Below are positions 1,549 to 59,418 of a DNA stretch of 64,000 nucleotides, piece by piece; position 1 is the stretch's first letter, and every line of letters starts with the position of its first letter. Location: assembly GCA_009695195.1 (NCBI GenBank), contig SIBJ01000001.1, positions 53,581 through 117,580 on the forward strand. The letters are read 5' to 3'. The position numbers and the translations under genes were made by a program. Source of the stretch: Pedosphaera sp. (GTDB taxonomy: Bacteria > Verrucomicrobiota > Verrucomicrobiia > Limisphaerales > JADLHS01). The notes under the pieces were generated by a model, which searched no databases, was not told the origin of the DNA, and saw only the letters and a list, made by a program, of their open reading frames with translations.

Positions 1549-1686
1549 GTCTTGGAGCGCGGTGGGTGAGGGCGAGGGCACACACCGCTTTGGGACGCGG
1601 AAACATCCAACGGAGCAGGCGGCCGAACATCGCAGAAAGAAAAGCGGTGTCAGCCCTGTTCCCCGCCAGCCACCGCACTCCAAGAC
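1549..1686. repeat. Hairpin repeat, family A (GTCTTGGAG(C/T)GCGGTGG...CACCGCTTT arms)
   Basis: The left arm 1549-1591 is the imperfect reverse complement of the right arm 1641-1686. The core GGA(C/G)TGCGGTGG...ACACCGCTTT recurs at 20649-20765 and 22375-22486. Confidence 0.6.
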
Positions 1687-1739
1687 CTTGCGGTGGTTCG
1701 GCGACTTGCAACCGACGACGAGGCGCTTAATCTCCGCGC

Positions 1740-3368: not shown

Positions 3369-4922
3369 ATGAAAACAAACCAGGTCGGACTCTGGCAGAG
3401 GTTGGAACAATTCCAACTGGACTCGGCGGAAGCGGCGCTTCCGTTCTCGGCCCGGCTCGCCCGGGAAAACAACTGGCTGCCCGCCCACGCCCAGCGGGTC
3501 ATCGCCGAATACAAACGCTTCGCCTTCCTCGCGGTGGCGGCGGGACATCCGGTGTCGCCGTCCGGAGACGTGGACCAGGCGTGGCACTTGCACCTGACCT
3601 ACTCGCACAATTACTGGAAGGTCTTCTGCCCGGGAATCCTCGGGCAACCGCTCCACCACCAGCCGACGAAAGGCGGGAGCGATGAGCGCGAGAAGTTCGG
3701 CGATTGGTATCGGCAGACGCTGGAAAGTTATCGCGAACACTTCGGCGAAGAACCGCCGCGCGACATCTGGCCCACGCCGGAAGTCCACGCCGCGGAGAAG
3801 CACAACTTCGTCCGCGTGGACCGTGAGCGGAGCTGGGTGATCCCGAAGCCGCGTTTCTGGTCTCTCTCTCCCCGCGAGGAACGAGTGGGGAGAGAGATGG
3901 AGAGAGGGGCCGTTCAAAAAACGCGCCTCCTCTCCCCGGCCCTCTCCTCCGCGCCGCGCGGAGGAGAGGGAGTCTTAATCGTGAAGCTGTTCGCTGGCGT
4001 TGGTTTGTCTGTGCTCGGTGTGCTTTGCACCGGTGCGATGCTGGCGCAGGGCGCGAATCCGTTCGACTGGCGCGGGCCGGACTTCCTCAAGTTTTATCTC
4101 GCGCTCGCCGGGGTGTGCTTCGGCTGCGCGGTGTGGCTGCGCTGGAAATTGCGCCAGCCCGTCGAGTTGCCGGCGGATGATTTGTCCGATCTCGATCCGT
4201 ACGCGATGGCTTACCTCAATGGCGGGCGCGTGCTGGCGGTGAACGCTGCCGTCGCCAACCTGGCGAATCAAGGATTGCTCCACGTGGACACAAAGAAACG
4301 GAAGCTTACGAGCCTCGGGACGATTTCGCCGGACCATCACCCGTTGGAACGCGCGGTCCACTCGGTCGCGAGAAAATCCGGCGGTGAAACGATCAAGGAG
4401 TTGCGCGCAGGCGTTCGATTGGCGGTGGAACGTATCTCGGAGGATTTGAAAGCGCGCGGACTGGTCGTGGCCGACGCGCAGGCGCGGAAAGCGATCTGGT
4501 TCCCGCTGCTCATCGCCGCGCTCGCACCGGCGCTCGGCGGAATAAATATTCTCATCGGTGTGAGTCGCGGAAAGCCGGTCACGATCCTCGTGGTGCTGTG
4601 CATCGTGTCGGCCATCGTGATGCTGGTCGGTTTCGCGCGACGCCCGCTGCGTAGCCGATGGGGCGGCGCGATGTTGGATCAATTGAAAGAACGCCACGCG
4701 ACGTTGCGGCGGCCGGGAATCAACACCGCCGGTCTCGGGCCGGTTGAGTTCGCCACGGCCATCGGGTTGTTTGGTCTGACGGCGCTGGCCGGAACTGAAT
4801 TGGAGGACTTGCGCAAGACGCTCACGCCGCCGGGTGGCGGCGGGAGTTGCGGAAGTTCCTGCGGGAGCGGCTGTGGCGGCGGTTGCGGCGGCGGGTGTGG
4901 GGGCTGCGGCGGCGGGGATTGA
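3369..4922 (+). CDS. TIGR04222-type membrane protein with an N-terminal GRDP-like domain and a Gly/Cys-rich C-terminal tail
   Basis: The N-terminus YKRFAFLAVAAGHPVSPSGDVDQAWHLHLTYSHNYW...DIWP matches my recollection of the conserved N-domain of TIGR04222 proteins. Several TM helices follow. The tail is GGGGSCGSSCGSGCGGGCGGGCGGCGGGD. A GAGGAA motif lies 4 nt upstream of the ATG. Confidence 0.7.
   Translation: MKTNQVGLWQRLEQFQLDSAEAALPFSARLARENNWLPAHAQRVIAEYKRFAFLAVAAGHPVSPSGDVDQAWHLHLTYSHNYWKVFCPGILGQPLHHQPTKGGSDEREKFGDWYRQTLESYREHFGEEPPRDIWPTPEVHAAEKHNFVRVDRERSWVIPKPRFWSLSPREERVGREMERGAVQKTRLLSPALSSAPRGGEGVLIVKLFAGVGLSVLGVLCTGAMLAQGANPFDWRGPDFLKFYLALAGVCFGCAVWLRWKLRQPVELPADDLSDLDPYAMAYLNGGRVLAVNAAVANLANQGLLHVDTKKRKLTSLGTISPDHHPLERAVHSVARKSGGETIKELRAGVRLAVERISEDLKARGLVVADAQARKAIWFPLLIAALAPALGGINILIGVSRGKPVTILVVLCIVSAIVMLVGFARRPLRSRWGGAMLDQLKERHATLRRPGINTAGLGPVEFATAIGLFGLTALAGTELEDLRKTLTPPGGGGSCGSSCGSGCGGGCGGGCGGCGGGD
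3861..3972. repeat. Intragenic hairpin repeats, family M-like (CTCTCCCC / GGGGAGAG arms)
   Basis: Two inverted repeats lie inside the CDS: TCTCTCTCCCC-N13-GGGGAGAGAGA (3861-3897) and CTCCCCGGCCCTCTCCTCCGCG-CCGCGCGGAGGAGAGGGAG (3927-3972). They share the CCCCGGCCCTCTCC core with the elements at 46811-47018 and 59298-59339. Confidence 0.55.
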
Positions 4923-11571: not shown

Positions 11572-11573
11572 GC

Positions 11574-11615
11574 CGCTAATCTTCGCTAATCAGCGCTGAT
11601 GAGTGGAGATTAGCG
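11574..11615. terminator. Hairpin between convergent genes (candidate bidirectional terminator)
   Basis: CCGCTAATCT (11574-11583) pairs with AGATTAGCGG (11606-11615), and there is an inner ATCAGCGCTGAT palindrome. It sits exactly between the stop at 11571 (+) and the stop at 11617 (-). There is no clear U-tract. Confidence 0.4.
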
Positions 11616-11616
11616 G

Positions 11617-14767: not shown

Positions 14768-14899
14768 AAAGCACCAAGCACCAAGCACCAAGCTCCAGAG
14801 AAATTCCAAGCTCCAAATTCCAAGCGGGGCCGGGCGCGCGGAGTTTGGAGCTTGGGTTTTGGAGCTTCTCTGGAGCTTGGTGCTTGGTGCTTGGAGCTT
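14768..14899. repeat. Long hairpin repeat, family C (AAGCACCAAGCTCCAGAGAAATTCCAAGCTCCAAATTCCAAG arms)
   Basis: The arms at 14768-14822 and 14844-14899 are reverse complements around a GC-rich loop, GGGGCCGGGCGCGCGG. A related copy lies at 31757-31892. Confidence 0.7.
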
Positions 14900-17242: not shown

Positions 17243-17251
17243 ATCCGAAAG

Positions 17252-17346
17252 CCGAACATCCAACACTCAACATCCAGATCGAACATCCAATTTGAACGGG
17301 CCGCGCGCCGGGTTCTTTGGATGTTGGTTGTTCGATGTTGGTTGTT
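17252..17346. repeat. Hairpin repeat, family D (GAACATCCAACACTCAACATCC arms)
   Basis: CCGAACATCCAACACTCAACATCCAGATCGAACATCCAA pairs with TTTGGATGTTGGTTGTTCGATGTTGGTTG around the GC-rich loop CGGGCCGCGCGCCGG. It lies between convergent lptB and the DUF554 gene. Confidence 0.6.
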
Positions 17347-17351
17347 TCGTT

Positions 17352-18134: not shown

Positions 18135-18143
18135 AGTGCGGAC

Positions 18144-18215
18144 GGAGCGCGGAATTCATTCCGCTTCGCCGCACCAACGCCAACCATCGCCGAAGCGGAA
18201 TAAATTCCGCGCTCC
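18144..18215. repeat. Hairpin repeat, family J (GGAGCGCGGAATTCATTCCGCTTCG arms)
   Basis: GGAGCGCGGAATTCATTCCGCTTCG ... CGAAGCGGAATAAATTCCGCGCTCC, an inverted repeat of about 25 bp. Confidence 0.6.
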
Positions 18216-18274
18216 GGAAAATTCATTGCGCCCGCTCTCAACGCAGCTAAAACTTCCCGGCAACTCAGACACTC

Positions 18275-20596: not shown

Positions 20597-20829
20597 GGTG
20601 GGTGCGATTAAAGGCAGGTGAGGGTGAGCGGGTGCTGGCGGTATTTTTGGACTGCGGTGGCAAGTCGGACGCGACACCGCTTTCGAGCGAACGAGGCGGG
20701 TTGCTCATTGCCCTCGCCGTCGTCGGTGCCAAAGCGGTGTCGCGTCCGACTTGCCACCGCAGTCCATTATGCCCTCACCCGTTTTTAATCACACGCTGCA
20801 CCCATGGGTGCGATTAAAGGCGGGTGGGG
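20597..20829. repeat. Composite repeat: a family A hairpin (20649-20765) nested between imperfect inverted copies of a GGGTGCGATTAAAGGC-GGTGAGGG motif
   Basis: GGACTGCGGTGGCAAGTCGGACGCGACACCGCTTT ... AAAGCGGTGTCGCGTCCGACTTGCCACCGCAGTCC are near-perfect arms. The flanking motif occurs at 20597-20626, inverted at 20771-20803, and direct again at 20806-20829. Confidence 0.6.
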
Positions 20830-20830
20830 A

Positions 20831-20936
20831 CCGGAGTGTGGCCGTCCCCGGCCACAGCAAGGTGGAGCGTACGGACGTCTTTTGAATTTCACAAATCTCC
20901 AAGCGTACGTGCGTTGCTGCGCCCGGGGACGGGCGC
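20831..20936. repeat. Repeat family B (GGCCGTCCCCGGCCACAGC ... GCGCCCGGGGACGGGCGC)
   Basis: An element of about 105 bp with small terminal hairpins. A recognisably similar copy in the opposite orientation lies at 26252-26356. Confidence 0.6.
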
Positions 20937-20990
20937 ACTCCGATCCCGCGTCGTGGCGGCGCTCTGCCGAGACGCCGCTACGCGCTTCCA

Positions 20991-22241: not shown

Positions 22242-22374
22242 AGGTGGTCGGGTTGAGTGCGCCGAACGTAGTGAAGTCTTCGCGTGGCGAGAAGAAGAAA
22301 ATGCTGGACGTTGCCGCCCAGAACGGTGGGCGGGGCCGGTGGCGTTTCCGCATCGGTTCCGCGGCGCGCGTCTT

Positions 22375-22486
22375 GGACTGCGGTGGCAAGTCCGACGCGA
22401 CACCGCTTTGGAAGGCGCGTTGACCAACCGAACCGCTCACGCCGTCCGAAAGCGCCGTCGGCGCTGGCGCTCTGTCGGCGCAGTCC
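22375..22486. repeat. Hairpin repeat, family A (degenerate copy)
   Basis: The left arm GGACTGCGGTGGCAAGTCCGACGCGACACCGCTTTGG is almost identical to that at 20649. The right arm ...CTCTGTCGGCGCAGTCC is diverged. Confidence 0.55.
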
Positions 22487-26186: not shown

Positions 26187-26251
26187 CGCGCCGAAGTTAG
26201 AGTCGCGCCGGGCGCGTTCAAAGAACAAAAGTTCGCGGCGCGTTGCGGAGC

Positions 26252-26356
26252 GCGCCCGTCCTCGGGCGCAGCAAGTCGCCTACGCCTGAAGGTTCGGGAA
26301 GTTCGGGCGGCTTTCGTACGTTCCACCTCGCTGTGGCCGGGGACGGCCACACTCCG
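26252..26356. repeat. Repeat family B (inverted relative to 20831-20936)
   Basis: GCGCCCGTCCTCGGGCGCAGCAAG...CTGTGGCCGGGGACGGCCACACTCCGG aligns by eye with the reverse complement of 20831-20936. Confidence 0.6.
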
Positions 26357-26468
26357 GATTCATTTCGAACGCGAACCGGCCCGGCGCGGTCACATACGCA
26401 CGAGCTTTTTCGCTTTGTGCCCGGAGCAATTCGCGTAGGCTCGCGTCAAACCGGTCGGGGATTTTCAA

Positions 26469-28787
26469 ATGAAACCTGTCACACTTCTTATCGCCGTGCT
26501 GTTGGCCGCCGGCGCTTTTGCCGTCGGCTACAAAATCGGCGGACGCGGTGCCGCGCCCACGAAAGCCGGGGAGCCGAACGCGGTCACGTCGTCGCCCGCC
26601 AACTCGGCCAATGCGCTGCCCAAGGTCAACGTCCGCTCCAAACGCGCCTCCGATCCCGCCGGGAAACCCGACAAGTCCGCCAAGCGCATGTCGCTCGCCG
26701 AGATCGAAACGGCGATCGGCGAGTTGAAAGGTCTTTCGCGTAACAAACTTTACGAACGCGTGAACGAGATCGTGAAAGGCGTGGACCCGGCGGACATCCC
26801 GGCGGTGATGGCCCTGGCCGCGAAGTTGCCGCAGGAAATCTCGAACGCGCTGCGTTACCAGTTGCTCCCGCGCTGGGCGGAAACGGACCCGAAGGCGGCG
26901 ATGGATTTCGCCGGCGGCATCAAGAATTTCAACGAGCGGCATCAGGCGATTCTCTCGGTGCTGCGCGGCTGGGCGAAGAATGATCCGCCGGGCGCGCTGG
27001 CGTGGATTCAACAATTACCACCCGGCCGGCTGAAAAACGAAGCGCCCGGCGCCATCGCGGGCATTATCGCCGAAAAGGACCCGAACGCGGCCTTCGAGTT
27101 GTTGAAGAACGTCAAGTCTGACCGCAGCTTCGGTTACAACTCGTATTACCAGTTGTTCGACACCTGGGCCAACAACGATCCCGCCGCCGCCGCCGCGAAG
27201 GCCGGTGAGATCAAGAACTGGCAGCAACGTCAGAACGCCTACCAGAACATCGCGCGCCGCTGGGCCGAGAAGGACGTGCCGGGCGCGCTCGCGTGGGCGA
27301 AGAGCCTGCCCGATGGCCGCGACCGTTCGAGCGCGATGGGCGCGGTGCTCGGCGCGTGGGCGGGAACCGATCCGCGTTCGGCGGCGGAGGCGGCGATCGC
27401 GTTGCCGCCGGGGCAGTCGCGCAACAGCGCGATCAGTTCGCTCGCGAGCCAGTGGGCCTCGTCGGATTTGACGGCGGCGCTGGCGTGGGCGCAGGCGTTG
27501 CCCGATGGCCAGGCGAAACAATCGGCATTGAACAGCATCAGCAGCCAGTGGGCGCAGAACGATCCGCAGGCGGCGTTGAAGTACGCGCTCGATATGCCGT
27601 CCGGCACGAAGAAAAATAGTCTACTCTCGACCATCGCTTCGCAGCTCGCGCAACAGGATCCGGAGGCGGCGCTGAAGTGGGCGCAGGAGTTGCCGCCGAG
27701 CCAGTCGAAGAACCAGATGTTGCAGAACATCGTGAACCAGCTTGCGTGGAACGATCCCAAGGCCGCGGCGGGTTTTGCTGTCAACATGCCGCCCGGCTGG
27801 CCGCGCAACAACGCCATCTCCCAGATCGCCAGCGGTTGGGCGCAACAAGACCCGAAGGAAGCCGGCGACTGGGTCAGCGCGCTGCCCGAAGGCCAGGCCA
27901 AGCGCGACGCGTTGCGAAATATTTCCTACCGCCTCGCCGAGACCGATCCGAAAGCCGCGGCGGAGTTCGCGATGAATCTGCCGGTGGGCCAGGCGCGGAA
28001 TGACTTCCTCGGCCAGGTCGCGTCGTCGTGGGCCCAATCGGACATCCCGGCCACGGTGGATTGGATCCGGCAAATGCCCGAAGGCGACGGCCAGCGCCGC
28101 GCGTTGAGCAGCCTGAGTTCTCAATGGGCGCAAACCGACCCACAAGCCGCGGCGACCTACGGCCTCTCGCTGCCCGCCGGCGCGGGGCAAAGTGATTTCC
28201 TCAACAACGTTGCGCGGCAATGGGGCGAGAGCGATCCCAAGGCCGCGCAAAGCTGGCTCGCGCAATTGCCCGAGGGCGAGGCGCGCCAACGGGCGATTGA
28301 CGGCATCGCGTCCGGCTGGGCGAACACCTCGCCGACGGAAGCCGCGAATTTTGTCGCGACGCTGCCCGCCGGGAAGTCGCAGAACAGCGCGGCGTTGAGC
28401 GTGATGTCCGCGTGGGCGAATGCCGACCCGGCGTCCGCCGCGAACTGGGCGGCGCAATTTCCCGAAGGCGACCTGCGCAAGAACGCGATGCAAAACCTGA
28501 TGAACTCGTGGGCGCAAAACGATCCGGGCGGCGCGGGAAAATTTCTCGAAGGCCTGCCCGCCGGCAAGTCGCGCGAATCGGCGATCCAAAGTTACATCAG
28601 CCAGTTGTCGCATCAGTCACCGGAATACGCCGCGCCGTTCGTGAACCAGATCGCCGACGACAACCAGCGCTTCAACTCCGCGCAAAACCTCGCGCACAAC
28701 TACAAGAACAATGACCCGATCGGCTACGCCAAATGGCTGACGACGCTGAACCTGCCCGAGGACAAATTGAAGCATCTGCCGAAGTGA
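26469..28787 (+). CDS. Membrane-anchored protein with about 19 tandem 32-residue helical repeats
   Basis: N-terminal TM helix (VTLLIAVLLAAGAFAV), then a Pro/Ala/Lys-rich linker. From about 26874 to about 28698 there are repeats with the consensus WAxxDPxxAxxWxxxLPxGxx(K/R)xxAxxxIxxx, for example WASSDLTAALAWAQALPDGQAKQSALNSISSQ. Confidence 0.75.
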   Translation: MKPVTLLIAVLLAAGAFAVGYKIGGRGAAPTKAGEPNAVTSSPANSANALPKVNVRSKRASDPAGKPDKSAKRMSLAEIETAIGELKGLSRNKLYERVNEIVKGVDPADIPAVMALAAKLPQEISNALRYQLLPRWAETDPKAAMDFAGGIKNFNERHQAILSVLRGWAKNDPPGALAWIQQLPPGRLKNEAPGAIAGIIAEKDPNAAFELLKNVKSDRSFGYNSYYQLFDTWANNDPAAAAAKAGEIKNWQQRQNAYQNIARRWAEKDVPGALAWAKSLPDGRDRSSAMGAVLGAWAGTDPRSAAEAAIALPPGQSRNSAISSLASQWASSDLTAALAWAQALPDGQAKQSALNSISSQWAQNDPQAALKYALDMPSGTKKNSLLSTIASQLAQQDPEAALKWAQELPPSQSKNQMLQNIVNQLAWNDPKAAAGFAVNMPPGWPRNNAISQIASGWAQQDPKEAGDWVSALPEGQAKRDALRNISYRLAETDPKAAAEFAMNLPVGQARNDFLGQVASSWAQSDIPATVDWIRQMPEGDGQRRALSSLSSQWAQTDPQAAATYGLSLPAGAGQSDFLNNVARQWGESDPKAAQSWLAQLPEGEARQRAIDGIASGWANTSPTEAANFVATLPAGKSQNSAALSVMSAWANADPASAANWAAQFPEGDLRKNAMQNLMNSWAQNDPGGAGKFLEGLPAGKSRESAIQSYISQLSHQSPEYAAPFVNQIADDNQRFNSAQNLAHNYKNNDPIGYAKWLTTLNLPEDKLKHLPK

Positions 28788-28791
28788 AGGG

Positions 28792-28873
28792 GCGTGTTGC
28801 GTGTTACGTGTTGCGTCAAGCAGCGAGGACGCCAACCGCAATACTTGACGCAACACGCAATACACAACACGCC
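28792..28873. repeat. Hairpin repeat, family E (CGTGTTGCGTGTT..GTGTTGCGTCAAG arms)
   Basis: GCGTGTTGCGTGTTACGTGTTGCGTCAAG ... CTTGACGCAACACGCAATACACAACACGC. A second copy lies at 34045-34116. Confidence 0.65.
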
Positions 28874-28895
28874 CGGTCAAAATACATTCGCGCCC

Positions 28896-31756: not shown

Positions 31757-31892
31757 GAAAGCTCCAAATTCCAACCTCCAAACTCCAGAGAAACTTCAAA
31801 TTCCAATTTCCAAAAACAGCGCGCTGGACGTGGCTCTTGGAATTTGGTGCTTGGAATTTCTCTGGAGCTTGGAGGTTGGTGCTTGGAACTTC
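31757..31892. repeat. Long hairpin repeat, family C
   Basis: GAAAGCTCCAAATTCCAACCTCCAAACTCCAGAGAAACTTCAAATTCCAA ... TTGGAATTTGGTGCTTGGAATTTCTCTGGAGCTTGGAGGTTGGTGCTTGGAAC. It shares the CTCCAGAGAAA / TTTCTCTGGAG core with 14768-14899. Confidence 0.7.
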
Positions 31893-34044: not shown

Positions 34045-34116
34045 ACGTGTTCCGTGTTCCGTGTTGCGTCAAGTGGCAAGGGACGTCGCTGCTACTTGAC
34101 GCAACACGCAACACGC
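34045..34116. repeat. Hairpin repeat, family E
   Basis: ACGTGTTCCGTGTTCCGTGTTGCGTCAAGT ... ACTTGACGCAACACGCAACACGC, between the DUF3106-like gene and trpB. Confidence 0.65.
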
Positions 34117-34173
34117 AAAGCCCGCCCACTTTCCCACTTTCTCCCCCGCCCGCTTTCGATTAGGGTCGAAAGC

Positions 34174-38846: not shown

Positions 38847-38959
38847 GTGGCGCGCGGCGATCACGCCGCTTCAGCGTCCGAACCGAAGGGAGTGGTCGTT
38901 TTGTATTCGACGCTACCAAGCGCTTGTGCGGTGAAGCGGCGTGAACGCCGCGCGCCGCC
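38847..38959. repeat. Hairpin repeat, family L (GGCGCGCGGCGATCACGCCGCTTCA arms)
   Basis: GTGGCGCGCGGCGATCACGCCGCTTCAGCG ... CGGTGAAGCGGCGTGAACGCCGCGCGCCGCC, with arms separated by about 55 nt. It lies between convergent genes. Confidence 0.6.
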
Positions 38960-44018: not shown

Positions 44019-44029
44019 ACGGACTTTGA

Positions 44030-44105
44030 GACACGGATTTCACGGATTTCCACGGATTCAACAATTCTGGAAATCAATCCGTGAAAATTCGTGAAATCCG
44101 TGTCT
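44030..44105. repeat. Hairpin repeat, family F (ACACGGATTTCACGGATTTCCACGGATT arms)
   Basis: AGACACGGATTTCACGGATTTCCACGGATT ... AATCCGTGAAAATTCGTGAAATCCGTGTCT. It fills the nuoB-nuoC spacer. Confidence 0.65.
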
Positions 44106-44694: not shown

Positions 44695-44713
44695 TTTCAT
44701 GGCTAAAGAATTT

Positions 44714-44801
44714 AACGCAGAGACGCAGAGGCCGCAGAGAGACGCGAAGGAATTCTTTGTGTTTTCTCTGCGAGCCTCTGCGGCCTCTGCGTCTCTGCGT
44801 T
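44714..44801. repeat. Hairpin repeat, family G (AACGCAGAGACGCAGAGGCCGCAGAGA arms)
   Basis: AACGCAGAGACGCAGAGGCCGCAGAGAGACGCG ... CTCTGCGAGCCTCTGCGGCCTCTGCGTCTCTGCGTT. A second copy lies at 54057-54153. It fills the nuoC-nuoD spacer. Confidence 0.7.
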
Positions 44802-44822
44802 TATTCGGCAACAATTAAGGCA

Positions 44823-46600: not shown

Positions 46601-46647
46601 AGATGCTGAATTCGACATTCTTCATTCTGCCTTCTTCATTGGGAGAG

Positions 46648-46721: not shown

Positions 46722-46810
46722 AACCGACGTGTCCGCTAAACTAGAGAATTTCGCAGGCCAGTCAAGCCGACAGACCGGTTCAACCGCGAACGACTTGAAT
46801 GGTTTTGACG

Positions 46811-47018
46811 CTCGCCCTCACCCCGGCCCTCTCCCCCGAGAAGAGGGAGAAGCTGCGCGCGGCTTACGAAAATTTGGCCGTCACAATTGCAGTCGCCATC
46901 TCTCTGCCGTTCGCTCCAAGGCGCTCACAACAAACTGCGATGTCCGTATCGCCACCAACCGGCGAACGATTCTCCCTCTCCTGGGGGAGAGGGCCGGGGT
47001 GAGGGTGGTCGTTCCCAC
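46811..47018. repeat. Inverted pair of family M elements (CTCACCCCGGCCCTCTCCCC / GGGGAGAGGGCCGGGGTGAG) flanking about 115 bp
   Basis: The left copy (46811-46852) and right copy (46968-47018) are mutual reverse complements, giving a MITE-like architecture in the nuoE-nuoF spacer next to the tRNA. Confidence 0.65.
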
Positions 47019-47056
47019 AAACATTTCACGCATCACGCATCACGCACCACGTTAAC

Positions 47057-48499: not shown

Positions 48500-48504
48500 A
48501 AATC

Positions 48505-49199: not shown

Positions 49200-50928
49200 C
49201 GCAACAACAACCGAAGTCAAGCCCGCGCCGCCTGCGATCGAAAAGATCAAGGTCAAGGTGGACGGGCGCGAAGTCGAAGTGCCGAAGCTCACGCCGGATT
49301 GGCAGGGCAAACTCGCGCCCACCACGATGCTGCAGGCGTGCGACATCGCGAAGAAGGATGTCCCGCATTATTGCTATCACCCGAAGCTGCCCGTCGCCGG
49401 TAATTGTCGCATGTGTCTCGTCGAGTTTGGCACGCCCGCACTCGGGCCGGATCGCAAGCCGGTGATGAATCCCGACGGCACGCCAAAGATTGCGAAGTCG
49501 CCGCGTCCGGCCATCGGTTGCGCCACGCCGATTTCGCCGGGAATGGAAATTTACACGAGCACTCCGGGCGTGAAGCAGATGCGCGAGGGCGTGCTCGAAT
49601 CGCTGCTCATCAATCATCCGCTCGATTGCCCGATCTGCGACCAAGCCGGCGAATGCAAGCTCCAGGAATATTCCGTGGACTACGGCCAGAGCGCGAGCCG
49701 TTTCGTTGAGGCAAAGGTTCACAAGCCCAAGGCCGTTGATCTCGGGCCGCGCATCATGCTCGACGCCGAGCGTTGCATTCTGTGCACGCGCTGCATCCGC
49801 TTCACAAAGGATGTCGCAGGCGACGACGCGCTGGGCATCGTGAATCGCGGCAGTTACAACACGATTGCGACGTTCCCCGGCCTGCCGTTCGACAACAACT
49901 ACACGCTCAACACCGTGGACATCTGTCCCGTCGGCGCGCTGACGTCGAAGGATTTTCGTTTCCAGATGCGTGTGTGGTTTCTCAAGGAAACTAAAAGCGT
50001 CTGCACGAGTTGCGCGACGGGTTGCAACGTCCTCATCAGCTCGCGCGAGGAAAAGATTTACCGCTACACGCCACGCGACAACGACGCCGTCAACGGTCCG
50101 TGGATGTGCGATGCGGGACGACTCAATTATAAGTGGATTCAACGCGAAGATCGGTTGAAGGATGTTTTAGTGGGGCAGGCTTCCAGCCTGCCTGTTTCAA
50201 AGTCCGGGCAGGCTGGAAGCTTGCCCCACTACAAATCTTCGTGGACTGCGGCACTCTCGGAAATTGCGGAGAAGCTCAAGCAAGCTCCGGCGGGTTCGGT
50301 GGCGATTGTTGTCTCGGCCTGCCAAACGAACGAAGAGCTTTGGCTGATCAGCAAACTCAAGGCGAAACTCGGTGCGATCAGTGATTCCGTCGAGCGCACA
50401 GGTGATGCCGACAAGTTGCTCGTCAGCGCTGACAAGAATCCCAACACAAACGGCGCGCGGCTCACCGGAATTTGCTTCAGCGAAATGGGAATCAACCTGC
50501 CCAAGATCGCGGACGGCATCGCGAGCGGAAAGATTAAGAGCCTCATCGTTTTCGGCGAAGACGTGACGAAGCACGGCATCAGCGCGGAATTGCTCGGCAA
50601 GCTGGACACGCTCATCGTCAGCGACATTTTGCCGAACGCCACAACGGCAGCCGCGCATTACGTTTTGCCTGGTTGCGCACACGCCGAGAAGCGCGGTTCG
50701 TTCACGAACACCAAAGGTCGTGTGCAAAAGTTCATGCAAGCCGTCCAGCCGCCCGGCGACGCCCGCGCCGAATGGGATTTTCTGCACGACTTGGTTTACA
50801 ACGTCACCGGCAAGAACGGTTTCCTGACCATCGAAGGTCTGTTCAACGAGATGGCGAAGGATGTTCCGGCGTTCAACGGTTTGACGTGGGCCAGCCTCAG
50901 TGACACGGGCGTGACGGTGAAGATTTGA
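49192..50928 (+). CDS. nuoG: NADH-quinone oxidoreductase subunit G
   Basis: N-terminal 2Fe-2S and 4Fe-4S motifs (CYHPKLPVAGNCRMCLVE, HPLDCPICDQAGECKLQ, CILCTRCIRF), then a molybdopterin-like domain. Confidence 0.9.
   Translation: MADATTTEVKPAPPAIEKIKVKVDGREVEVPKLTPDWQGKLAPTTMLQACDIAKKDVPHYCYHPKLPVAGNCRMCLVEFGTPALGPDRKPVMNPDGTPKIAKSPRPAIGCATPISPGMEIYTSTPGVKQMREGVLESLLINHPLDCPICDQAGECKLQEYSVDYGQSASRFVEAKVHKPKAVDLGPRIMLDAERCILCTRCIRFTKDVAGDDALGIVNRGSYNTIATFPGLPFDNNYTLNTVDICPVGALTSKDFRFQMRVWFLKETKSVCTSCATGCNVLISSREEKIYRYTPRDNDAVNGPWMCDAGRLNYKWIQREDRLKDVLVGQASSLPVSKSGQAGSLPHYKSSWTAALSEIAEKLKQAPAGSVAIVVSACQTNEELWLISKLKAKLGAISDSVERTGDADKLLVSADKNPNTNGARLTGICFSEMGINLPKIADGIASGKIKSLIVFGEDVTKHGISAELLGKLDTLIVSDILPNATTAAAHYVLPGCAHAEKRGSFTNTKGRVQKFMQAVQPPGDARAEWDFLHDLVYNVTGKNGFLTIEGLFNEMAKDVPAFNGLTWASLSDTGVTVKI
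50170..50229. repeat. Hairpin repeat, family N, inserted in frame within nuoG
   Basis: GTGGGGCAGGCTTCCAGCCTGCC-N14-GGCAGGCTGGAAGCTTGCCCCAC has 23-nt arms with one mismatch. It is 60 nt long, which is 20 codons (VGQASSLPVSKSGQAGSLPH). Confidence 0.7.
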
Positions 50929-50929
50929 A

Positions 50930-52018: not shown

Positions 52019-52019
52019 C

Positions 52020-52562: not shown

Positions 52563-52564
52563 CG

Positions 52565-53536: not shown

Positions 53537-53539
53537 GCT

Positions 53540-54043: not shown

Positions 54044-54056
54044 ACTATGGCCAGAT

Positions 54057-54153
54057 AAACGCAGAGCCGCAGAGCCGCAGAGAACGCGGAGAAACGCAGA
54101 GGAAATCATTTTCTTTTCTCCGCGAACCTCCGCGGCCTCTGCGTCTCTGCGTT
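54057..54153. repeat. Hairpin repeat, family G
   Basis: AAACGCAGAGCCGCAGAGCCGCAGAGAACGCGGAG ... CTCCGCGAACCTCCGCGGCCTCTGCGTCTCTGCGTTT. It fills the nuoJ-nuoK spacer. Confidence 0.7.
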
Positions 54154-54181
54154 TAGGTTTTTGCCCCACGGTTAAAAGAAA

Positions 54182-54487
54182 ATGAACGTCGGCCTCGAAC
54201 ATTATCTTGTGGTGAGTGCGCTGTTGTTCGCGCTCGGTCTGCTGGGCGTCATCACGCGACGCAACCTGCTTGTCGTTTACATGTCGCTGGAGTTGATGCT
54301 CAACTCGGCGAATCTCGCGCTCGTCTCCTTTTCGCGGTTCAACGACAACCTCAACGGTCAGGTGATGGTGTTCTTCATCATCACTGTGGCGGCGGCGGAA
54401 GTGGCAGTCGGCCTCGCGCTGATCGTGGCGCTCTACCGCAAGCGCCAGAGTGCGCACGTCGAAGACCTGACGAGCATGAAACTTTGA
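54182..54487 (+). CDS. nuoK: NADH-quinone oxidoreductase subunit K
   Basis: 101 aa. [22 protein letters not shown]....MS.ELMLN is the NuoK signature. Confidence 0.9.
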
Positions 54488-54507
54488 TGATGAAAGGCGA
54501 AAGAATT

Positions 54508-54743
54508 CAACGCAAAGGCGCAAAGACGCAAAGACGCGAGGAATCCTTTGCGCGACGGGCGTTGTGCGGCGTAGCGCAGGTTTCCAAACCTGCTGTATCG
54601 CCGATTTCCAAATCGGCGTGGCGTGTTGATTCAGAGCGCGTCGAACTTGCGGGCGGCCTGCGGGTTTGGAAACCCGCGATACAGCAGACTTGGAAGTCCG
54701 CGCTACAGACTTTGCGCCTTTGCGCCTTTGCGCCTTCGCGTTG
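54508..54743. repeat. Nested hairpin repeats: family H outer arms enclosing a family I element (54571-54706)
   Basis: Outer arms are CAACGCAAAGGCGCAAAGACGCAAAGACGCGAGG ... CTTTGCGCCTTTGCGCCTTTGCGCCTTCGCGTTG. The inner element is GTAGCGCAGGTTTCCAAACCTGCTGTATCG ... CGATACAGCAGACTTGGAAGTCCGCGCTAC, with further small hairpins. Confidence 0.65.
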
Positions 54744-54755
54744 GAAAATTACCGG

Positions 54756-56657: not shown

Positions 56658-57772
56658 AATCGCGATCTGCCAACAAAAAAACTTTGAGGAAGGCCCGCCC
56701 GGCCTCGCGGAAGATTGTCGCGACATCGTCGCGACAATTGGCGAAGGCTTCTCCCAAAGCCTTGCTGGTAGATGTGCGAGAACTGATTCTCGCCGCGCGC
56801 GCGGGCGTGGCGCGCACGGTCAATGCCGGCCTGACTCTGCTCTATTGGGAGGTTGGGAATCGCATTCGCGTGGATGTCCTCAAGGAGCGGCGAGCTGGTT
56901 ACGGCGAGGAAATTGTGCAGACGTTGTCGGCACAATTGGAAATCGAGTTCGGGCGCGGGTTCAGCAAGCGCAACCTTTTCAGCATGGTCGCTTTTGCCGA
57001 GGCATTTCCTGACCGGAAGATTGTGCAGACACTGTCTGCACAATTGGGCTGGAGTCATTTCAAGGAAATCATTCCGCAGCAGGATGAATTGAAGCGCGAC
57101 TTCTACGCCGAGATGTGTCGCATGGAGCGATGGAATGTGCGGACGCTGCGGCGGAAAATCGGTGGAATGCTTTTCGAGCGCACCGCCATCTCAAAGAAGC
57201 CCGACCAACTCATCCGCCAGGAACTCAAAGCTCTCCGCGAGGAAGACCAACTCACCCCCGACCTCGTCTTCCGTGATCCTTATGTGCTGGATTTTCTCAA
57301 GCTCAAGGACAGCTACAGCGAAGGCGACCTCGAAGCCGCGATTCTGCGCGAGATCGAGTCGTTCATTCTGGAACTCGGTGAGGGCTTCTGCTTCGTCGCG
57401 CGGCAGAAGCGGATGCAGATTGACGACCGCGATTACCATCTTGACCTGTTGTTCTTCCATCGCAAGCTGCGCCGGCTCGTGGCGATTGATTTGAAGCTGG
57501 ATGATTTCGAGGCCGCCGACAAAGGGCAGATGGAACTCTACCTGAACTGGCTCAAGAAACATGAGCAAAGCCCGGACGAAGCGCCGCCGCTCGGCATCAT
57601 CCTGTGCGCGGGCAAACGGCAGGAACACGTCGAACTGTTGCAAATGGAACGCGACGGCATTCACGTTGCCAGCTACGTGACGAAGTTGATTCCGAAGAAG
57701 CAACTCGAGCGAAAGCTTCACCAGGCTGTGCGCTTGGCAAGGGCCCGGCTGGAGGAAACCAAACTTAGATGA
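56654..57772 (+). CDS. DUF1016/YhcG-family PD-(D/E)xK nuclease-domain protein
   Basis: The N-terminal DUF1016-like helical domain (NAGLTLLYWEVGNRI...YGEEIVQTLSAQL, a duplicated IVQTLSAQL motif, WSHFKEI) and the C-terminal nuclease core (GFCFVARQKRMQIDDRDYHLDLLFFHRKLRRLVAIDLK) match YhcG as I recall it. ATGA overlaps occur at both ends, with nuoL and nuoM. Confidence 0.8.
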   Translation: MKSRSANKKTLRKARPASRKIVATSSRQLAKASPKALLVDVRELILAARAGVARTVNAGLTLLYWEVGNRIRVDVLKERRAGYGEEIVQTLSAQLEIEFGRGFSKRNLFSMVAFAEAFPDRKIVQTLSAQLGWSHFKEIIPQQDELKRDFYAEMCRMERWNVRTLRRKIGGMLFERTAISKKPDQLIRQELKALREEDQLTPDLVFRDPYVLDFLKLKDSYSEGDLEAAILREIESFILELGEGFCFVARQKRMQIDDRDYHLDLLFFHRKLRRLVAIDLKLDDFEAADKGQMELYLNWLKKHEQSPDEAPPLGIILCAGKRQEHVELLQMERDGIHVASYVTKLIPKKQLERKLHQAVRLARARLEETKLR

Positions 57773-59418
57773 CGACGTTGACCTTAATCTTTGCGCTGCC
57801 GTTGCTCGCCGCAATCGCGCTGGCGTTTGTGCCGCGCAACTTTGCCGTCATCATGCGCGCCGTGGCGGTGGGTGTGACCTTCGTCACGATGCTGCTGGCG
57901 GTGCTGATGTTTTGGCGGTTCGACGCGAAGGCGGAAGGCTATCAATTCGTCAGCACCATTCCCGGACTCGGCGCGGAGTCGCTCGGTATCGCCTGCAAGC
58001 TGGGCGTGGACGGTTTGAACGTCGGGCTGGTGTTGATGGGCGCGATCGTTGCGTTCGCGGCGGCGTGTTGCTCGTTTGAGATCAAGTCGCGGGAGAAGGA
58101 GTTTTACATCCTGCTGCTCGTAATGACCGGTGGCATCCTTGGCGCGTTCATGTCGCTCGATCTGTTCTTCTTCTACTTCTTCCACGAACTCGCGCTCGTG
58201 CCGACGTTCATCATGATCGGCGTGTGGGGTCGCGGGGAGAAGAAGAACTACGCCACGTTTCAGATCACGCTTTACCTGAGCATCGGCGCATTGCTGGCGC
58301 TCATCGGCCTCATCGCGCTTTACCTGCAAGTGCCGGCGGACGTTCGCACGTTCGACATCCCGACGCTCACAAAGTTTTTCACGGAACATCCAATGGCGCT
58401 CGCGTCGCAGAAATTTATTTTCCCGATGCTGCTGTTTGGCTTCGGAATTCTCGTTTCGCTCTGGCCGTTTCATTCGTGGGCGGCGCTGGGTTACTGTTCT
58501 GCGCCGAGCGCGACGGCGATGTTGCACGCGGGTGTGCTGAAAAAGTTCGGGCTCTACGGTTTGATCCGCGTGGCGCTGCCGTTCATGCCACAGGCGGCGC
58601 AGACTTGGATGCAAATCCTCGCGTGGCTCGCGCTTGGCAACGTGCTTTACGTCGGCTGGGTCGCGATGAAGCAAAAGAACCTGAACCTGCTCATCGGCAA
58701 TTCCAGCGTGGCGCACATGGGCATGATCTTCCTCGGCATTGCGAGCCTGAACCTCATCGGCGTGACCGGCGCGGTGGTCATCATGATCGCGCACGGCTTC
58801 CTCGCGGCGCTGACGTTCGGCTTGAGCGGCTACATCTACAACCAGACCGGCACGCTCGAAATGAGCGAACTCGGCGGGCTGGCGAAGAAGCTGCGTTTCA
58901 TCGGCGTGGCGTTCGTGATGGCGGCGATGGCGGGTTGCGGCCTGCCGGGCTTCTTGAATTTCGTCGGCGAGGTCACGGTGTTTTTCGGCGCCTGGGCTCA
59001 ACCAAGCTTGCGCGTCGTCACCGTGCTGGCGGTGTGGGGCGCCCTGATCATTGGTGCAGTTTACATGCTGCGCGCGGTGCGGGCGGCCTTGCATGGCCCG
59101 ATGCCGGAGAAGTGGGCAGACGTTTCCGACGCAAACCTGTGGCGCAAACTACCCTATGCCCTTTTGCTTGCGAGTTTGCTGGTGTTTGGTTTCTTCCCGA
59201 AGTTGCTCACGGAAAAAATCAAGCCGGTGACGGAACAGATTGTGAACATGGCGGTGGTGAAGGCGGTTGTTGCCGAGAAGCCGGACGCAAAAAATCCCCT
59301 CACCCCGGCCCTCTCCCCTTCTGAAGGGGAGAGGGAGAATCGTCGGCAGTTGTCTGGCAGTTTCGGTGCTGCTGGTGACTTGATACCCGACAAAAAATTG
59401 CCAATAGCCAAGAAATGA
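57769..59418 (+). CDS. nuoM: NADH-quinone oxidoreductase subunit M (with a repeat-derived C-terminal extension)
   Basis: Antiporter-like TM core (FFHELALVPTFIMIGVWG, HAGVLKKFGLYG). The last 50 or so codons (KNPLTPALSPSEGERENRRQ...) run through the family M repeat. Confidence 0.9.
   Translation: MTTLTLIFALPLLAAIALAFVPRNFAVIMRAVAVGVTFVTMLLAVLMFWRFDAKAEGYQFVSTIPGLGAESLGIACKLGVDGLNVGLVLMGAIVAFAAACCSFEIKSREKEFYILLLVMTGGILGAFMSLDLFFFYFFHELALVPTFIMIGVWGRGEKKNYATFQITLYLSIGALLALIGLIALYLQVPADVRTFDIPTLTKFFTEHPMALASQKFIFPMLLFGFGILVSLWPFHSWAALGYCSAPSATAMLHAGVLKKFGLYGLIRVALPFMPQAAQTWMQILAWLALGNVLYVGWVAMKQKNLNLLIGNSSVAHMGMIFLGIASLNLIGVTGAVVIMIAHGFLAALTFGLSGYIYNQTGTLEMSELGGLAKKLRFIGVAFVMAAMAGCGLPGFLNFVGEVTVFFGAWAQPSLRVVTVLAVWGALIIGAVYMLRAVRAALHGPMPEKWADVSDANLWRKLPYALLLASLLVFGFFPKLLTEKIKPVTEQIVNMAVVKAVVAEKPDAKNPLTPALSPSEGERENRRQLSGSFGAAGDLIPDKKLPIAKK
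59298..59339. repeat. Family M hairpin inside the 3' end of nuoM
   Basis: CCTCACCCCGGCCCTCTCCCC-TTCTGAA-GGGGAGAGGGAGAA shares its core with 46811-47018 and 3927-3972. Confidence 0.6.

Follow-up and report, generated by a model that had tools for sequence, protein, structure and literature searches.

GTAG-tagged REP and REPIN elements with RAYT (Y1/HUH) transposases, which Nunvar in 2010 and Bertels and Rainey in 2011 are said to have described, are among the systems closest to the repeats analyzed here. Di Nocera et al. (2013, PMC3733652) described GTAG-tagged REPs in Planctomycetes and in the verrucomicrobium Opitutus terrae, so that the remark of an initial annotation of this locus that no formal description was known for the clade is not supported.

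The locus is a 64-kb stretch of DNA (hereafter, the window) from a metagenome-assembled genome (MAG) of Pedosphaera sp. (Verrucomicrobiota), and a database protein with the name 'MAG ... [Pedosphaera sp.]' matches its NuoG at 100% identity. Pedosphaera is a soil/freshwater member of the Verrucomicrobia. The elements of the window resemble the Correia elements of Neisseria, the enterobacterial ERIC/IRU and the pneumococcal BOX/RUP elements in that they are 70-240 bp long, consist nearly entirely of inverted repeat, are dispersed, vary between strains and are often transcribed together with neighboring genes, but they differ in that neither a fixed target duplication nor a parent IS was found for them. 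In those families, we know of no arms built from 7-10-nt tandem units and of no mini-ORFs bridging adjacent genes.

Hairpin repeats in the window

A strict ungapped scan (arms of at least 20 nt, at least 85% complementary, span of at most 320) identified 17 long inverted repeats in the window, against a chance expectation of ~0.1; first-order Markov simulations of the window (n=10) yielded 0-1 each. Predicted fold energies of the elements ranged from -30 to -120 kcal/mol, with z < -3 relative to dinucleotide shuffles in 14 intergenic gaps. The families A-N of the initial annotation were all recovered where they had been placed or a few bases off, with arms of 22-55 nt that were 71-100% complementary in every listed element, and self-BLASTN of the window bore out the grouping of copies (A, B, C, E, G, M). 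Tandem sub-repeats, which had been ascribed to the arms in general, are present in C, D, E, F, G and H; A, B, J, K, L, M and N have none. Three further palindromes were absent from the earlier list:

11573..11616: palindrome of 44 nt between convergent HYR-domain and PNP_UDP_1 genes, z = -5.8
42887-42916: canonical terminator palindrome, read on the minus strand
56911-57045: palindrome within a DUF1016 gene

Placement had been described too sweepingly. Under an approximate gene model of the window, ~14-18 (roughly 60%) of the 28 gaps longer than 70 bp contain an element, rather than nearly all; the location of most copies at gene 3' ends or between convergent genes was likewise overstated, with only ~5 elements in convergent gaps and another ~5 in spacers between divergent genes. 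Of the rest, ~8 lie between co-directional genes, mostly within the nuo or the kdsA-lptB operon, and 3 within genes, namely, N (nuoG), M3 (nuoM) and M0 (ORF 3369-4922).

Four or more structural classes

The window contains four or more structural classes of hairpin repeat. One consists of K, N and I, whose arms begin with GTAG (or GTAT/TTAG), continue into a small palindrome and are arranged as inverted doublets. This architecture matches the published definition of GTAG REPs, a superfamily already known from Verrucomicrobia (PMC3733652).

19556..19651, convergent gap: K, GTAG-tagged REP inverted doublet (REPIN-like), arms GGTAGGGCGCGTCGCTCCGCGCGCGCCG 100% complementary
50165..50234, plus strand: N, GTAG-type REP doublet, in frame within nuoG, encoding GQASSLPVSKSGQAGSLPHY
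54508..54743: H (CGCAAAGN periodic arms) with I nested, a composite between nuoK and nuoL
54571-54706, nested in H: I, four GTAG/GTAT-tagged REP units, two per arm

K begins 3 nt past the stop codon of a GFO_IDH_MocA oxidoreductase gene (18275-19552) and has copies at three other loci, the one in L121 with one compensatory pair changed. N, which is not intergenic, is missing from 561-aa NuoG relatives at 92-93% identity in the NuoG alignment; in further relatives, this codon position holds a singlet or a different doublet, and N is common, as protein sequence, to many database NuoG entries. In common with known GTAG REP/REPIN elements, the short palindromes of K, N and I bear a GTAG-like tag at the 5' end and form long hairpins as head-to-head doublets; they are mostly extragenic with occasional in-frame copies in genes, and several families coexist in a genome, with RAYT genes and cognate flanking REPs in related genomes. 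Unlike them, the window families have no RAYT found for them, GTAG is missing from most window elements (A, B, J, L, C-H, M), and doublet arms reach 28-55 nt.

The TGGAST/GGAGYG-tagged hairpins (A, J, L, B) occur as singlets and inverted doublets:

1544..1691, divergent spacer between gatC and a C92 peptidase gene: A1, diverged inverted doublet of TGGAST-tagged A units (1553-1591, plus strand; 1641-1682, minus strand; spacer 84 nt)
20602..20794: composite element with an outer inverted repeat (20602-20624 / 20772-20794) around A2, -102 kcal/mol
20648-20766, nested in that repeat: A2, perfect 36-nt A-unit doublet
22374..22409, plus strand, divergent spacer between a nucleoside-symporter gene and a sulfatase gene: A3, A-unit singlet
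20827..20947: B1, inverted doublet of GGAGTG-tagged small hairpins (TGTGGCCG-TCCC-CGGCCACA), with a partial match at one other locus
26246..26357: B2, second family B copy, inverted relative to B1, 81% over 112 nt (self-BLASTN)
18143..18216, divergent spacer: J, inverted doublet of GGAGCG-tagged REP-like units (GGAGCGCGGAAT-TCA-ATTCCGCTTC)
38849..38956, convergent gap: L, inverted doublet of REP-like units (GGCGCGCGGCG-ATCA-CGCCGCTTC), with the architecture of J

In self-BLASTN, the A copies at 20647 and 22373 are 97% identical, and the copy at 1544 is the diverged doublet, the arms of which are 92-96% identical to doublets at two other loci; the loop variant of A2 is also present at two. J has matches of 96-100% at two loci and similar units at three more. 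A scan of other sequences revealed the A-unit pattern in more than 117 stretches among the matches listed, and the unit occurs, with compensatory stem changes, in Verrucomicrobiota, Acidobacteriota and other phyla; it is not lineage-specific, as the repertoire as a whole had been called. Two stem pairs covary (UA 24/CG 16 and CG 29/GC 11), with a score reached by 0 of 500 shuffles. Relative to flanking genes, 17 units are in sense and 13 in antisense orientation, and this lack of strand bias fits a DNA-level element. With ~90% sequence identity across phyla, the A unit departs from classical REP families, which, to our knowledge, differ even from species to species.

A third class consists of CCCTCACCCCGG-CCCTCTCCCC units (M), with an identical 22-mer at 46815, 46984 (reverse complement) and 59297 (self-BLASTN):

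3861..3990: M0, three small CT/GA-rich hairpins related to the M unit (CCTCTCCCCGGCCCTCTCC...GGAGGAGAGGG)
46808..47012, tRNA-Gln/nuoF junction: M1, two M units (CCCTCACCCCGGCCCTCTCCCCC), inverted, 145 nt apart
59297..59335, plus strand: M3, single M unit plus hairpin, in frame in the nuoM C-terminal tail

M1 has orthologous copies in two related genomes (L118, L205), and the nuoM tail with M3 ends in an ATGA overlap with nuoN. M0 is probably read in frame within ORF 3369-4922, judging from the open frame. N, and probably M3 and M0, resemble Rickettsia palindromic elements (RPE) as in-frame palindromic repeats in conserved protein genes, located at tolerant surface positions and polymorphic among relatives; sequence, host phylum and element class differ, and the window families are mostly intergenic.

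Finally, the periodic-arm hairpins (C/D, E, F, G/H) have arms composed of 7-10-nt tandem units:

14769..14899, kdsA/kdsC junction: C1, CCAAGCN heptads, core CTCCAGAGAA, GC-rich loop, -98 kcal/mol
31759..31891, upstream of a sigma-factor gene, at or just before the glnD start: C2, second family C copy
17246..17347, between convergent lptB and DUF554 gene: D, AACATCC/CAACACT heptads, superfamily of C
28785..28879, overlapping the stop codon of gene 26460-28787, convergent with glnD: E1, GTGTTRC heptads
34046..34118, between a DUF3106 gene and a trpB-like gene: E2, second family E copy, open in frame with an ORF starting at 34021
44029..44105, nuoB/nuoC junction: F, CACGGATTT x3
44714..44801, nuoC/nuoD junction: G1, three copies of CGCAGAGN followed by CGCGAAGGAAT
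54056..54155, nuoJ/nuoK junction: G2, second family G copy

Self-BLASTN aligned C1 (14774) with C2 (31759) at 80% over 128 nt, E1 with E2 at 82% over 76 nt, and G1 with G2 at 84% over 88 nt. C1 is situated within the kdsA-kdsC-lptCAB operon. The core CTCCAGAGAA is common to the C-type elements of the window and four other loci, D-related copies are present at six, and G-type elements share their ends, AACGCAGAG...CGCGAAGGAAT in the window and the variant AACGCAGAG...CCGCGGAGAAT in L121.

Probable turnover among related genomes

Contrary to a possible uniqueness of the elements to the window, A (A1), C, D, G/H, J, K, M and N all have copies at loci of other genomes. The same families recur in seven related nuo operons, where they occupy different junctions. 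The nuoB/nuoC junction, occupied by F in the window, is empty in L118, L120, L204 and L207 and holds F-like hairpins in L121 and L206; in L120 and L204, nuoC/nuoD (G1 in the window) is compact as well. L120 is also compact at nuoJ/nuoK and nuoK/nuoL, where the window holds G2 and H/I, and carries C-type hairpins at nuoD/nuoE, nuoI/nuoJ and nuoM/nuoN, where the window has none. At nuoJ/nuoK, L121 has a G-type element, as does the window, and a single junction may hold different families in different genomes. The occurrence of the same families at different nuo junctions, together with compact empty sites in close relatives, points to mobility or turnover rather than to conserved regulators, and the copies elsewhere and the presence/absence polymorphism at orthologous sites uphold the reading of the elements as multi-family, repeated REP/BIME/MITE-like hairpins.

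Elements also nest, I in H, a K-type in a D-type element (L121) and A2 in its outer inverted repeat. Such mosaics of palindromic units within one intergenic region (H with I; outer repeat with A2 and B1), along with sites within operons, recall enterobacterial BIMEs, to which the window elements have no sequence relation and the protein partners of which are IHF and gyrase. Filled sites show 4-8-bp duplications that include ATGA; rather than being a transposition signature, these may have been selected because they keep the stop and start codons intact. At the G2 site, AAATGAAC is duplicated relative to the empty L120 site, and the periodic-arm hairpins do not generally have direct repeats at their flanks.

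Mini-ORFs at operon junctions

Of 24 operon-junction hairpins, 17 are spanned by a mini-ORF that connects the stop of the upstream gene with the start of the downstream gene, compared with 5.7 expected when the element sequence is kept and the frame alone shifted (P~6e-9, with the junctions not all independent because some are orthologous). The discovery set contributed 9 of 14 junctions and a replication set from four further genomes, with third-party gene coordinates, 8 of 10. C1 is spanned by a 45-codon mini-ORF that begins at an ATGA stop/start overlap, G1 by one of 39 codons that ends 5 nt ahead of the nuoD ATG, and the H/I composite by one of 90 codons that ends in an ATGA overlap with nuoL.

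Transposases and origin of the repeats

Within the 64-kb window, we found no cognate transposase of any kind, Y1 included. Relatives do encode RAYTs, flanked by REPs of other types; none was found with K, N, I, A or periodic-arm units at its flanks, and 361 kb of Y1 loci contained zero A units. Y1_Tnp genes with their own flanking inverted REPs are present in L121 and L085, this arrangement largely holds for 26 metagenome Y1_Tnp loci (of 80 fetched), and in L205 and L206, Y1_Tnp genes lie between nuoH and nuoI.

Overall, the initial interpretation is partly supported. We consider it probable (about 0.7) that the window holds a mixed population of small, non-autonomous hairpin repeats of the REP/REPIN/MITE kind, shaped by selfish spread or turnover. 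In our assessment, the hairpins are unlikely to be, first and foremost, cis-acting RNA or DNA structures under selection (bidirectional or I-shaped terminators, 3'-end mRNA stabilizers, intra-operon processing or attenuation signals, gyrase or nucleoid-protein sites), repeated through convergent or conserved function. Such selection would fit the very stable stems, the position of C1, D, E1, F, K and G2, which begin 0-12 nt past a stop codon, the five elements in convergent gaps, and the retention of M1 and of the nuoJ/nuoK G-type element at orthologous sites; the A-unit covariation and compensatory changes are also compatible with it, and REPs of E. coli stabilize upstream mRNA and bind gyrase and IHF. 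However, 17 of 21 elements lack a T-run after the stem, eight lie between co-directional genes, most in operons that need read-through, and three are within coding sequence, translated in frame, which also speaks against the earlier proposal that they act as terminators. With intrinsic (Rho-independent) terminators they share GC-rich stem-loops near stop codons, and 42887-42916 is one true case, but the stems are far longer, most without a U-tract, and many are located where transcription must continue. Further evidence against selected structures comes from the element-free or differently occupied junctions of close relatives, the unbiased orientation of A units relative to transcription, and the lack of any Rfam family match for the elements.

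Somewhat less likely again is growth of the periodic-arm hairpins (C-H) in place, by slippage of short tandem units and template-switch (quasi-palindrome) copying, with similar elements elsewhere being parallel products of mutational bias. The number and variants of the 7-10-nt units differ between copies, as in the 80% identical C1 and C2, the same architecture recurs in other genomes with many different unit sequences, and neither consistent target-site duplications nor an associated transposase were found, all as this scenario would have it; by contrast, the non-repetitive C core and G-type ends are common across loci and genomes, and whole 90-140-nt elements occupy sites measuring 0-10 nt in close relatives, which looks like insertion, not gradual growth. 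Assembly or binning artefacts, such as fold-back chimeras, might be suspected in a MAG, and short-read assemblies break at two elements, an ENA contig of the same organism terminating at ~31757, at C2, and a short-read contig from that organism within A1. Nevertheless, the independent ENA ERZ1305449, Logan SRR8561390 and NCBI MAG assemblies encode identical flanking proteins, and this agreement effectively refutes an artefact; the same families also appear in well over 100 contigs from unrelated projects, orthologous junctions included, and N is in frame in its many NuoG entries.

Under the preferred reading, the hairpin repeats would be selfish DNA that spreads or turns over. For the GTAG class, mobilization in trans is most likely, by a Y1/HUH transposase of the RAYT type whose gene lies at another place in the genome. 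Copies would survive only where harm is small: immediately after stop codons, in spacers, in in-frame protein loops or tails and at operon junctions. Any mRNA-stabilizing or transcription-barrier effect would be secondary. The new point that emerges here is the bridging mini-ORFs across operon-junction hairpins: survivors at these junctions would usually be enclosed by a mini-ORF extending from at or next to the upstream stop to at or next to the downstream start, and the ribosome translating it would melt the hairpin and keep translational coupling.

A dense population of hairpin repeats

An inverted-repeat search of the window returned 95 inverted-repeat pairs, the longest of which coincide with the hairpins reported by the initial annotation, and RNAfold in 140-nt windows gave outliers down to -102 kcal/mol at those positions, the individual elements being predicted to fold as near-perfect hairpins. 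A strict ungapped scan (arms of at least 20 nt, complementarity of at least 85%) found 17 elements, compared with 0-1 per Markov-simulated window (n = 10), and self-BLASTN showed families A, B, C, E, G and M to be multi-copy inside the window. Summed element lengths cover ~2.3 kb, or 3.7% of the window. The search, the folding, the simulations and self-BLASTN bear out the existence of dense, multi-family hairpin repeats that had been noticed from sequence alone: this is a real REP/REPIN/MITE-like repeat population, of a general kind that is already known and with one class, marked by a GTAG tag, already described for Verrucomicrobia. At the Rfam 15 gathering score, only tRNA-Gln reached threshold in a scan of the window; at permissive thresholds, the sub-threshold matches were to generic long-hairpin miRNA models and are meaningless. 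Short-read contigs of the source organism break at C2 and within A1, as expected from multi-copy repeats.

Hairpin families in the window (letter, family; number, copy; start positions)
GTAG class: K, 19556; N, 50165; I, 54571 (nested in H)
TGGAST/GGAGYG-tagged class: A1, 1544; A2, 20648 (inside 20602-20794); A3, 22374; B1, 20827; B2, 26246; J, 18143; L, 38849
Periodic-arm class: C1, 14769; C2, 31759; D, 17246; E1, 28785; E2, 34046; F, 44029; G1, 44714; G2, 54056; H, 54508
M units: M0, 3861; M1, 46808; M3, 59297

Structural classes

In the GTAG class (K, N and I), an arm consists of a GTAG (or GTAT/TTAG) tag and a small palindrome, and two arms pair into a REPIN-like hairpin. All three families carry the tag and are inverted doublets with 14-42-nt spacers, as in REPINs; I has two units per arm.

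K unit: GGTAGGGCGCG-T-CGC-TCC-GCG-CGCGCC
N unit: one arm GTAGTGGGGCAAGC-TTCC-AGCCTGCC, the other arm tagged TTAG
I units: GTAGCGCAGGTTTCCAAACCTGC and GTATCGCCGATTTCCAAATCGGC

The GTAG REP superfamily has been published for Opitutus terrae (Verrucomicrobia) and Rhodopirellula baltica, intragenic copies included (PMC3733652), and beyond that paper we found no descriptions of the element sequences, or of Pedosphaera or Verrucomicrobia repeats, in the open-access literature. The tag is missing from A, B, J, L, C-H and M; A, J, L and B share the inverted-doublet architecture, but with other tags, and form the TGGAST/GGAGYG-tagged class. The A unit reads TGGA(C/G)T-GCGGYG-G-S-AA-[variable inner stem-loop]-S-A-CRCCGC-TTT and is a singlet in A3 and an inverted doublet in both A1 and A2. 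J and L (GG[A/C]GCGCGG...CCGCTTC) follow a plan of conserved tag plus variable stem, as does a unit from comparison locus L095, GTCTTGGAGTGCGCCAG-TCCTC-CTGGCGCTTT.

The arms of the periodic class are built from short tandem units: CCAAnnn heptads flanking a core, CCAGAGAA or CCAGATCG, in C and D, which we treat as one superfamily; GTGTTRC heptads in E; CACGGATTT in F; and [CGCARAGN]3 followed by CGCGARGGAAT in G and H, treated as another superfamily. We considered these arms as CsrA-type GGA-motif sponges or iteron-like protein sites and rejected both: perfect stems sequester the motifs, which also vary by family. The M unit, CCCTCACCCCGG-CCCTCTCCCC plus a hairpin, stands alone in M3 and M0, and M1 is made up of two inverted copies separated by 145 nt.

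Gene setting and the terminator question

The window NuoG is 100% identical to an NCBI protein named 'MAG ... Pedosphaera sp.' on a 221-kb contig. The gene map, based on Pfam scans and third-party gene calls, comprises the following.

gatC and HYR-domain giants
kdsA-kdsC-lptC-lptA-lptB
PIN toxin-antitoxin pair, sulfatase, glnD
ECF sigma factor, trpB-like gene, cinA
43.5-60.9 kb: complete nuoB-N operon, broken by an opposite-strand tRNA-Gln and by DUF4160 and DUF1016 genes

Under this approximate gene model, about five elements lie in convergent gaps (one at 11573, D, K, E1 and L), about five in divergent spacers (A1, J, A3, B2 and C2), and about eight in co-directional spacers (C1, A2+B1, E2, F, G1, M1, G2 and H/I), most of the latter within the kdsA-lptB or nuo operons; three are in frame within genes: nuoG contains N, the tail of nuoM contains M3 and, judging from its open frame, ORF 3369-4922 contains M0. 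With only about five convergent elements, the initial description of most copies as sitting at gene 3′ ends or between convergent genes was overstated, and so was the claim that nearly every gap over 70 bp contains one, given that a family member is present in about 17-18 of the 28 such gaps and the whole-gap fold reaches z < -3 in 14 of them.

The proposal that the elements act as terminators is not supported. An intrinsic terminator closes a transcription unit with a stem and, directly behind it, a U/T-rich tract, and the elements overall lack this arrangement: only for C2 (- strand), G2, B2 and a palindrome outside the families (42887-42916) did the 8 nt behind the stem contain at least five T, and the eight co-directional placements, mostly in operons, together with the three intragenic ones also speak against termination. 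That palindrome (- strand), a 13-bp GC-rich stem followed by the T-rich tract CTGTTTTCTCT, is a canonical intrinsic terminator located downstream of a GFO/IDH/MocA oxidoreductase gene (41482-42783) and exemplifies an ordinary terminator in the source genome, in contrast to the repeat hairpins. We also dismissed a stop-codon-free design of the elements, as the depletion is modest (64 stops versus 87±7 in dinucleotide shuffles) and the same as in the coding background.

Two other features of the nuo region were recorded. The tRNA-Gln(CTG) at 46648-46721 (- strand) occupies the nuoE/nuoF spacer, and the same tRNA-like sequence is found at this position in comparison loci L204, L205 and L207. The DUF1016/YhcG gene (56636-57772) contains, in its N-terminal coding region, two near-perfect 26-nt palindromes at 56911-57045, 83 nt apart, AATTGTGCAGAC(G/A)(T/C)TGTC(G/T)GCACAATT, each encoding IVQTLSAQL and unrelated to every hairpin family.

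Operon-junction hairpins are usually enclosed in bridging mini-ORFs

Most hairpins at operon junctions lie inside a mini-ORF. Its start coincides with the upstream stop or is a few nucleotides away from it, often being the ATG of what was once an ATGA overlap; its end falls at most 12 nt from the downstream start or overlaps that start, or else the mini-ORF continues in frame into the downstream gene.

kdsA-kdsC junction, window: mini-ORF of 45 codons
nuoC-nuoD junction, window: mini-ORF of 39 codons
nuoK-nuoL junction, window: mini-ORF of 90 codons through the nested H/I composite, ending in ATGA
nuoD-nuoE and nuoM-nuoN junctions, related operon L120: mini-ORFs each running from one ATGA to the next

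In the discovery set, 9 of 14 junctions were bridged, compared with 2.2±1.2 when the element interiors were shuffled, and in a replication set from four further genomes, using third-party gene coordinates, 8 of 10 were bridged (1.5±1.1 with shuffled interiors). Under a conservative null, in which the element is left intact and only the frames are shifted, the combined 17 of 24 exceeded the expected 5.7 (P ~6e-9), the 24 junctions including orthologous ones and therefore not all being independent. F-type elements at nuoB-nuoC and GTAG doublets at nuoG-nuoH do not follow the rule.

An insertion into an essential operon might survive if translation traverses the hairpin and hands over to the next cistron; on this view, even a very stable hairpin would leave polycistronic expression unaffected as long as ribosomes translate through it. 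Ribosomes terminating in E. coli stall when a REP lies within ~15 nt of the stop codon, and similar stalling here would make the bridging arrangement advantageous.

Turnover at orthologous sites

In an alignment of NuoG homologues, the proteins fall into several length classes. At the N site, 561-aa relatives (92-93% identity) read KDVLV-RGQ-KSSWT where the window protein reads KDVLV-GQASSLPVSKSGQAGSLPHY-KSSWT, and further relatives have either one unit (GQAGSPSHY) or doublets unlike N there; the nuoM tail containing M3 is 39 aa longer in the window than in L120. N, and probably M3, are RPE-like, that is, in-frame repeats in conserved genes that are absent from orthologues. NuoG has a second variable site, at alignment columns ~483-503 (nuoG ~50600 in the window), where some relatives (P0021, P0035, P0052 and P0111) have a ~20-aa insertion, e.g. 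LLMNSVKSDKLRDKELTSEVV, that is absent in the window and not obviously repeat-derived.

Seven related nuo operons were compared, from L118-L121 and L204-L207, with L119 represented only by a 5-kb nuoF-nuoH fragment. Where the window has F, G1 and H/I (nuoB-nuoC, nuoC-nuoD and nuoK-nuoL, respectively), L120 has gaps of 3-10 nt, and where the window has G2 (nuoJ-nuoK), L120 has an ATGA overlap; conversely, L120 carries C-type hairpins at nuoD-nuoE, nuoI-nuoJ and nuoM-nuoN and a GTAG doublet at nuoG-nuoH, all four junctions being compact in the window. L121 contains an F-like hairpin at nuoB-nuoC, G-type elements at nuoC-nuoD and nuoJ-nuoK, an H-type element at nuoG-nuoH, and a K-type element nested inside a D-type one at nuoK-nuoL, and L204-L207 show other combinations, including a GAAGATG-period family at nuoJ-nuoK and M-type pairs at nuoL-nuoM. 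M1 is kept orthologously in L118 and L205. Comparison of filled and empty sites revealed duplications of 8 bp (AAATGAAC), 7 bp (GATGAAA) and 4 bp (ATGA), each including the stop/start overlap; around ~35 periodic-arm hairpins, no consistent flanking direct repeats (target-site duplications) were found.

The nuo operon (window 43509-60875; L118, L120, L121, L204-L207) is also, in this clade, a hotspot of small gene insertions between cistrons that differ by genome, such as DUF4160/DUF2442, Unstab_antitox/ParE, HicAB, AbiEii, NTP_transf_2, D12 methyltransferase, DUF1016, aspartyl protease and Y1_Tnp genes. The ~1 kb between nuoI and nuoJ in the window (52563-53539) contains no Pfam-recognisable gene and no hairpin; ORF 52148-53536, which covers this region, has no family match. 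This junction is compact or hairpin-only in L120, L204, L206 and L207 and holds an unannotated 193-aa ORF in L205.

The A unit beyond the window

The A-unit pattern matches the window five times and none of 100 shuffles. A genome-collection scan found it, among the matches listed, on more than 117 contig stretches labelled Limisphaerales, Pedosphaera, Akkermansiaceae, Opitutaceae, Haloferula, Luteolibacter, Chthoniobacter, Kiritimatiellia, Lentisphaerales, Phycisphaerae, Pyrinomonadaceae and Blastocatellia (both Acidobacteriota) and a few others, this taxonomy being that of the contig labels, some of which, for MAGs, are evidently wrong. Contamination alone would not readily account for the lineage-specific loop variants, such as AATCCCGAT...ATCGGGAG in Pyrinomonadaceae. 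In a set of 113 unique units, the first free stem position is T-A in 65, C-G in 40 and other in 8, and the second is C-G in 84, G-C in 20 and other in 9; for units 36 nt long, pairing holds in 92.5% of cells, with a covariation score reached by 0 of 500 shuffles. We read these data as compensatory change within a subfamily that has been conserved in Verrucomicrobiota, Kiritimatiellota, Lentisphaerota, Planctomycetota and Acidobacteriota. With respect to genes, the orientation of A units is unbiased (17 sense, 13 antisense). In L019 (3089-4326) and L034 (2131-2480), 3-5 copies are arrayed head-to-tail in the same orientation with a period of ~157 nt, unlike the inverted doublets found elsewhere.

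BLASTN against the A-unit loci and later loci recovered relatives of A1 (each arm at 92-96% identity in L037 and L049), J, K (L082, L103, L121), C, D, G/H, M and N (L030, L121, L147), and none of E, F, I or L; F-like hairpins nevertheless occupy the same operon junction in L121 and L206.

Candidate transposases

Neither Pfam scans of ~45 ORFs nor tblastn with a Y1 protein detected a Y1_Tnp or other transposase in the window. L121 encodes a 147-aa Y1_Tnp protein (E = 5e-23; 13107-13550) between nuoH and nuoI, flanked by its own inverted REPs, ATTAACACCCCGC-ttta-GCGGGGTG on one side and CACCCCGC-tgaa-GCGGGGTGTTAATGAG on the other. Y1 genes lie between nuoH and nuoI also in L205 (13284-13733) and L206 (13073-13525), and most of the 26 loci inspected among 80 fetched metagenome loci share the L121 arrangement, often at the same operon position. 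In L121, L205/L206 and most of the 26, the flanking REPs are TTAATGAG-tagged, with hairpins GAAACCGT-tgaa-ACGGTTTC. This RAYT-like gene, conserved in position in many Verrucomicrobiota (including many of L122-L201) and absent from the window, has the appearance of a REPtron passed on vertically. RAYT-REP systems occur commonly in the Pedosphaera-related clade, and window families such as K, N and I may be linked to them.

For the A unit, the Y1 genes of two A-unit loci were considered as partners and rejected: the gene in L085 is flanked by GTAG REPs (GTAGCCCATAGC...) and that in L093 by another REP type, so their proximity to A units is coincidental. None of the 80 fetched RAYT loci contains an A unit, 812 kb of A-unit loci yielded no parent IS or recurrent transposase-like ORF near the elements, and ORF clustering across 117 A-unit loci showed no enriched gene, the only recurrent clusters being large paralogue families (two-component systems, sulfatases, GFO oxidoreductases). 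The REP type in L093 (~1248-1478), GGGCTGAAAGCCCG(C/T)(C/A)ATGTGATAGCCCAG, appears abundant and flanks a different Y1 transposase, a sign of tagged-palindrome diversity in Verrucomicrobiota.

Apparent novelty and implications

Our joint reading, which we hold tentatively at a probability of about 0.45, is that, in Pedosphaera-like Verrucomicrobiota, junction hairpins persist almost only inside bridging mini-ORFs and that the window contains a third tagged REP-like superfamily, both apparently undescribed. We read the plan of this superfamily as a (T)TGGAST/GGAGYG tag followed by a bulged hairpin and TTT. The periodic-arm hairpins, built from tandem units of 7-10 nt, would add another architecture without a previous description. 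Neither Rfam nor the open-access literature appears to describe the bridging mini-ORFs, the periodic arms or the cross-phylum A superfamily with its TGGAST tag and compensatory stem changes.

To our knowledge, REP/REPIN biology rests almost entirely on Proteobacteria. The window provides an unusually dense example from PVC bacteria, with four structural classes in 64 kb, and filled and empty sites in the essential, conserved nuo operon make turnover directly visible. In practice, such repeats can break short-read assemblies, yield false 'hypothetical proteins' and vary the length of conserved proteins such as NuoG. If functional, the mini-ORF pattern would amount to a simple rule by which strong secondary structure is tolerated within operons; it would also supply annotations with small ORFs, whether spurious or real. 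The cross-phylum A unit, if upheld, would call for an enzyme or constraint that holds a 36-nt hairpin almost unchanged from phylum to phylum.
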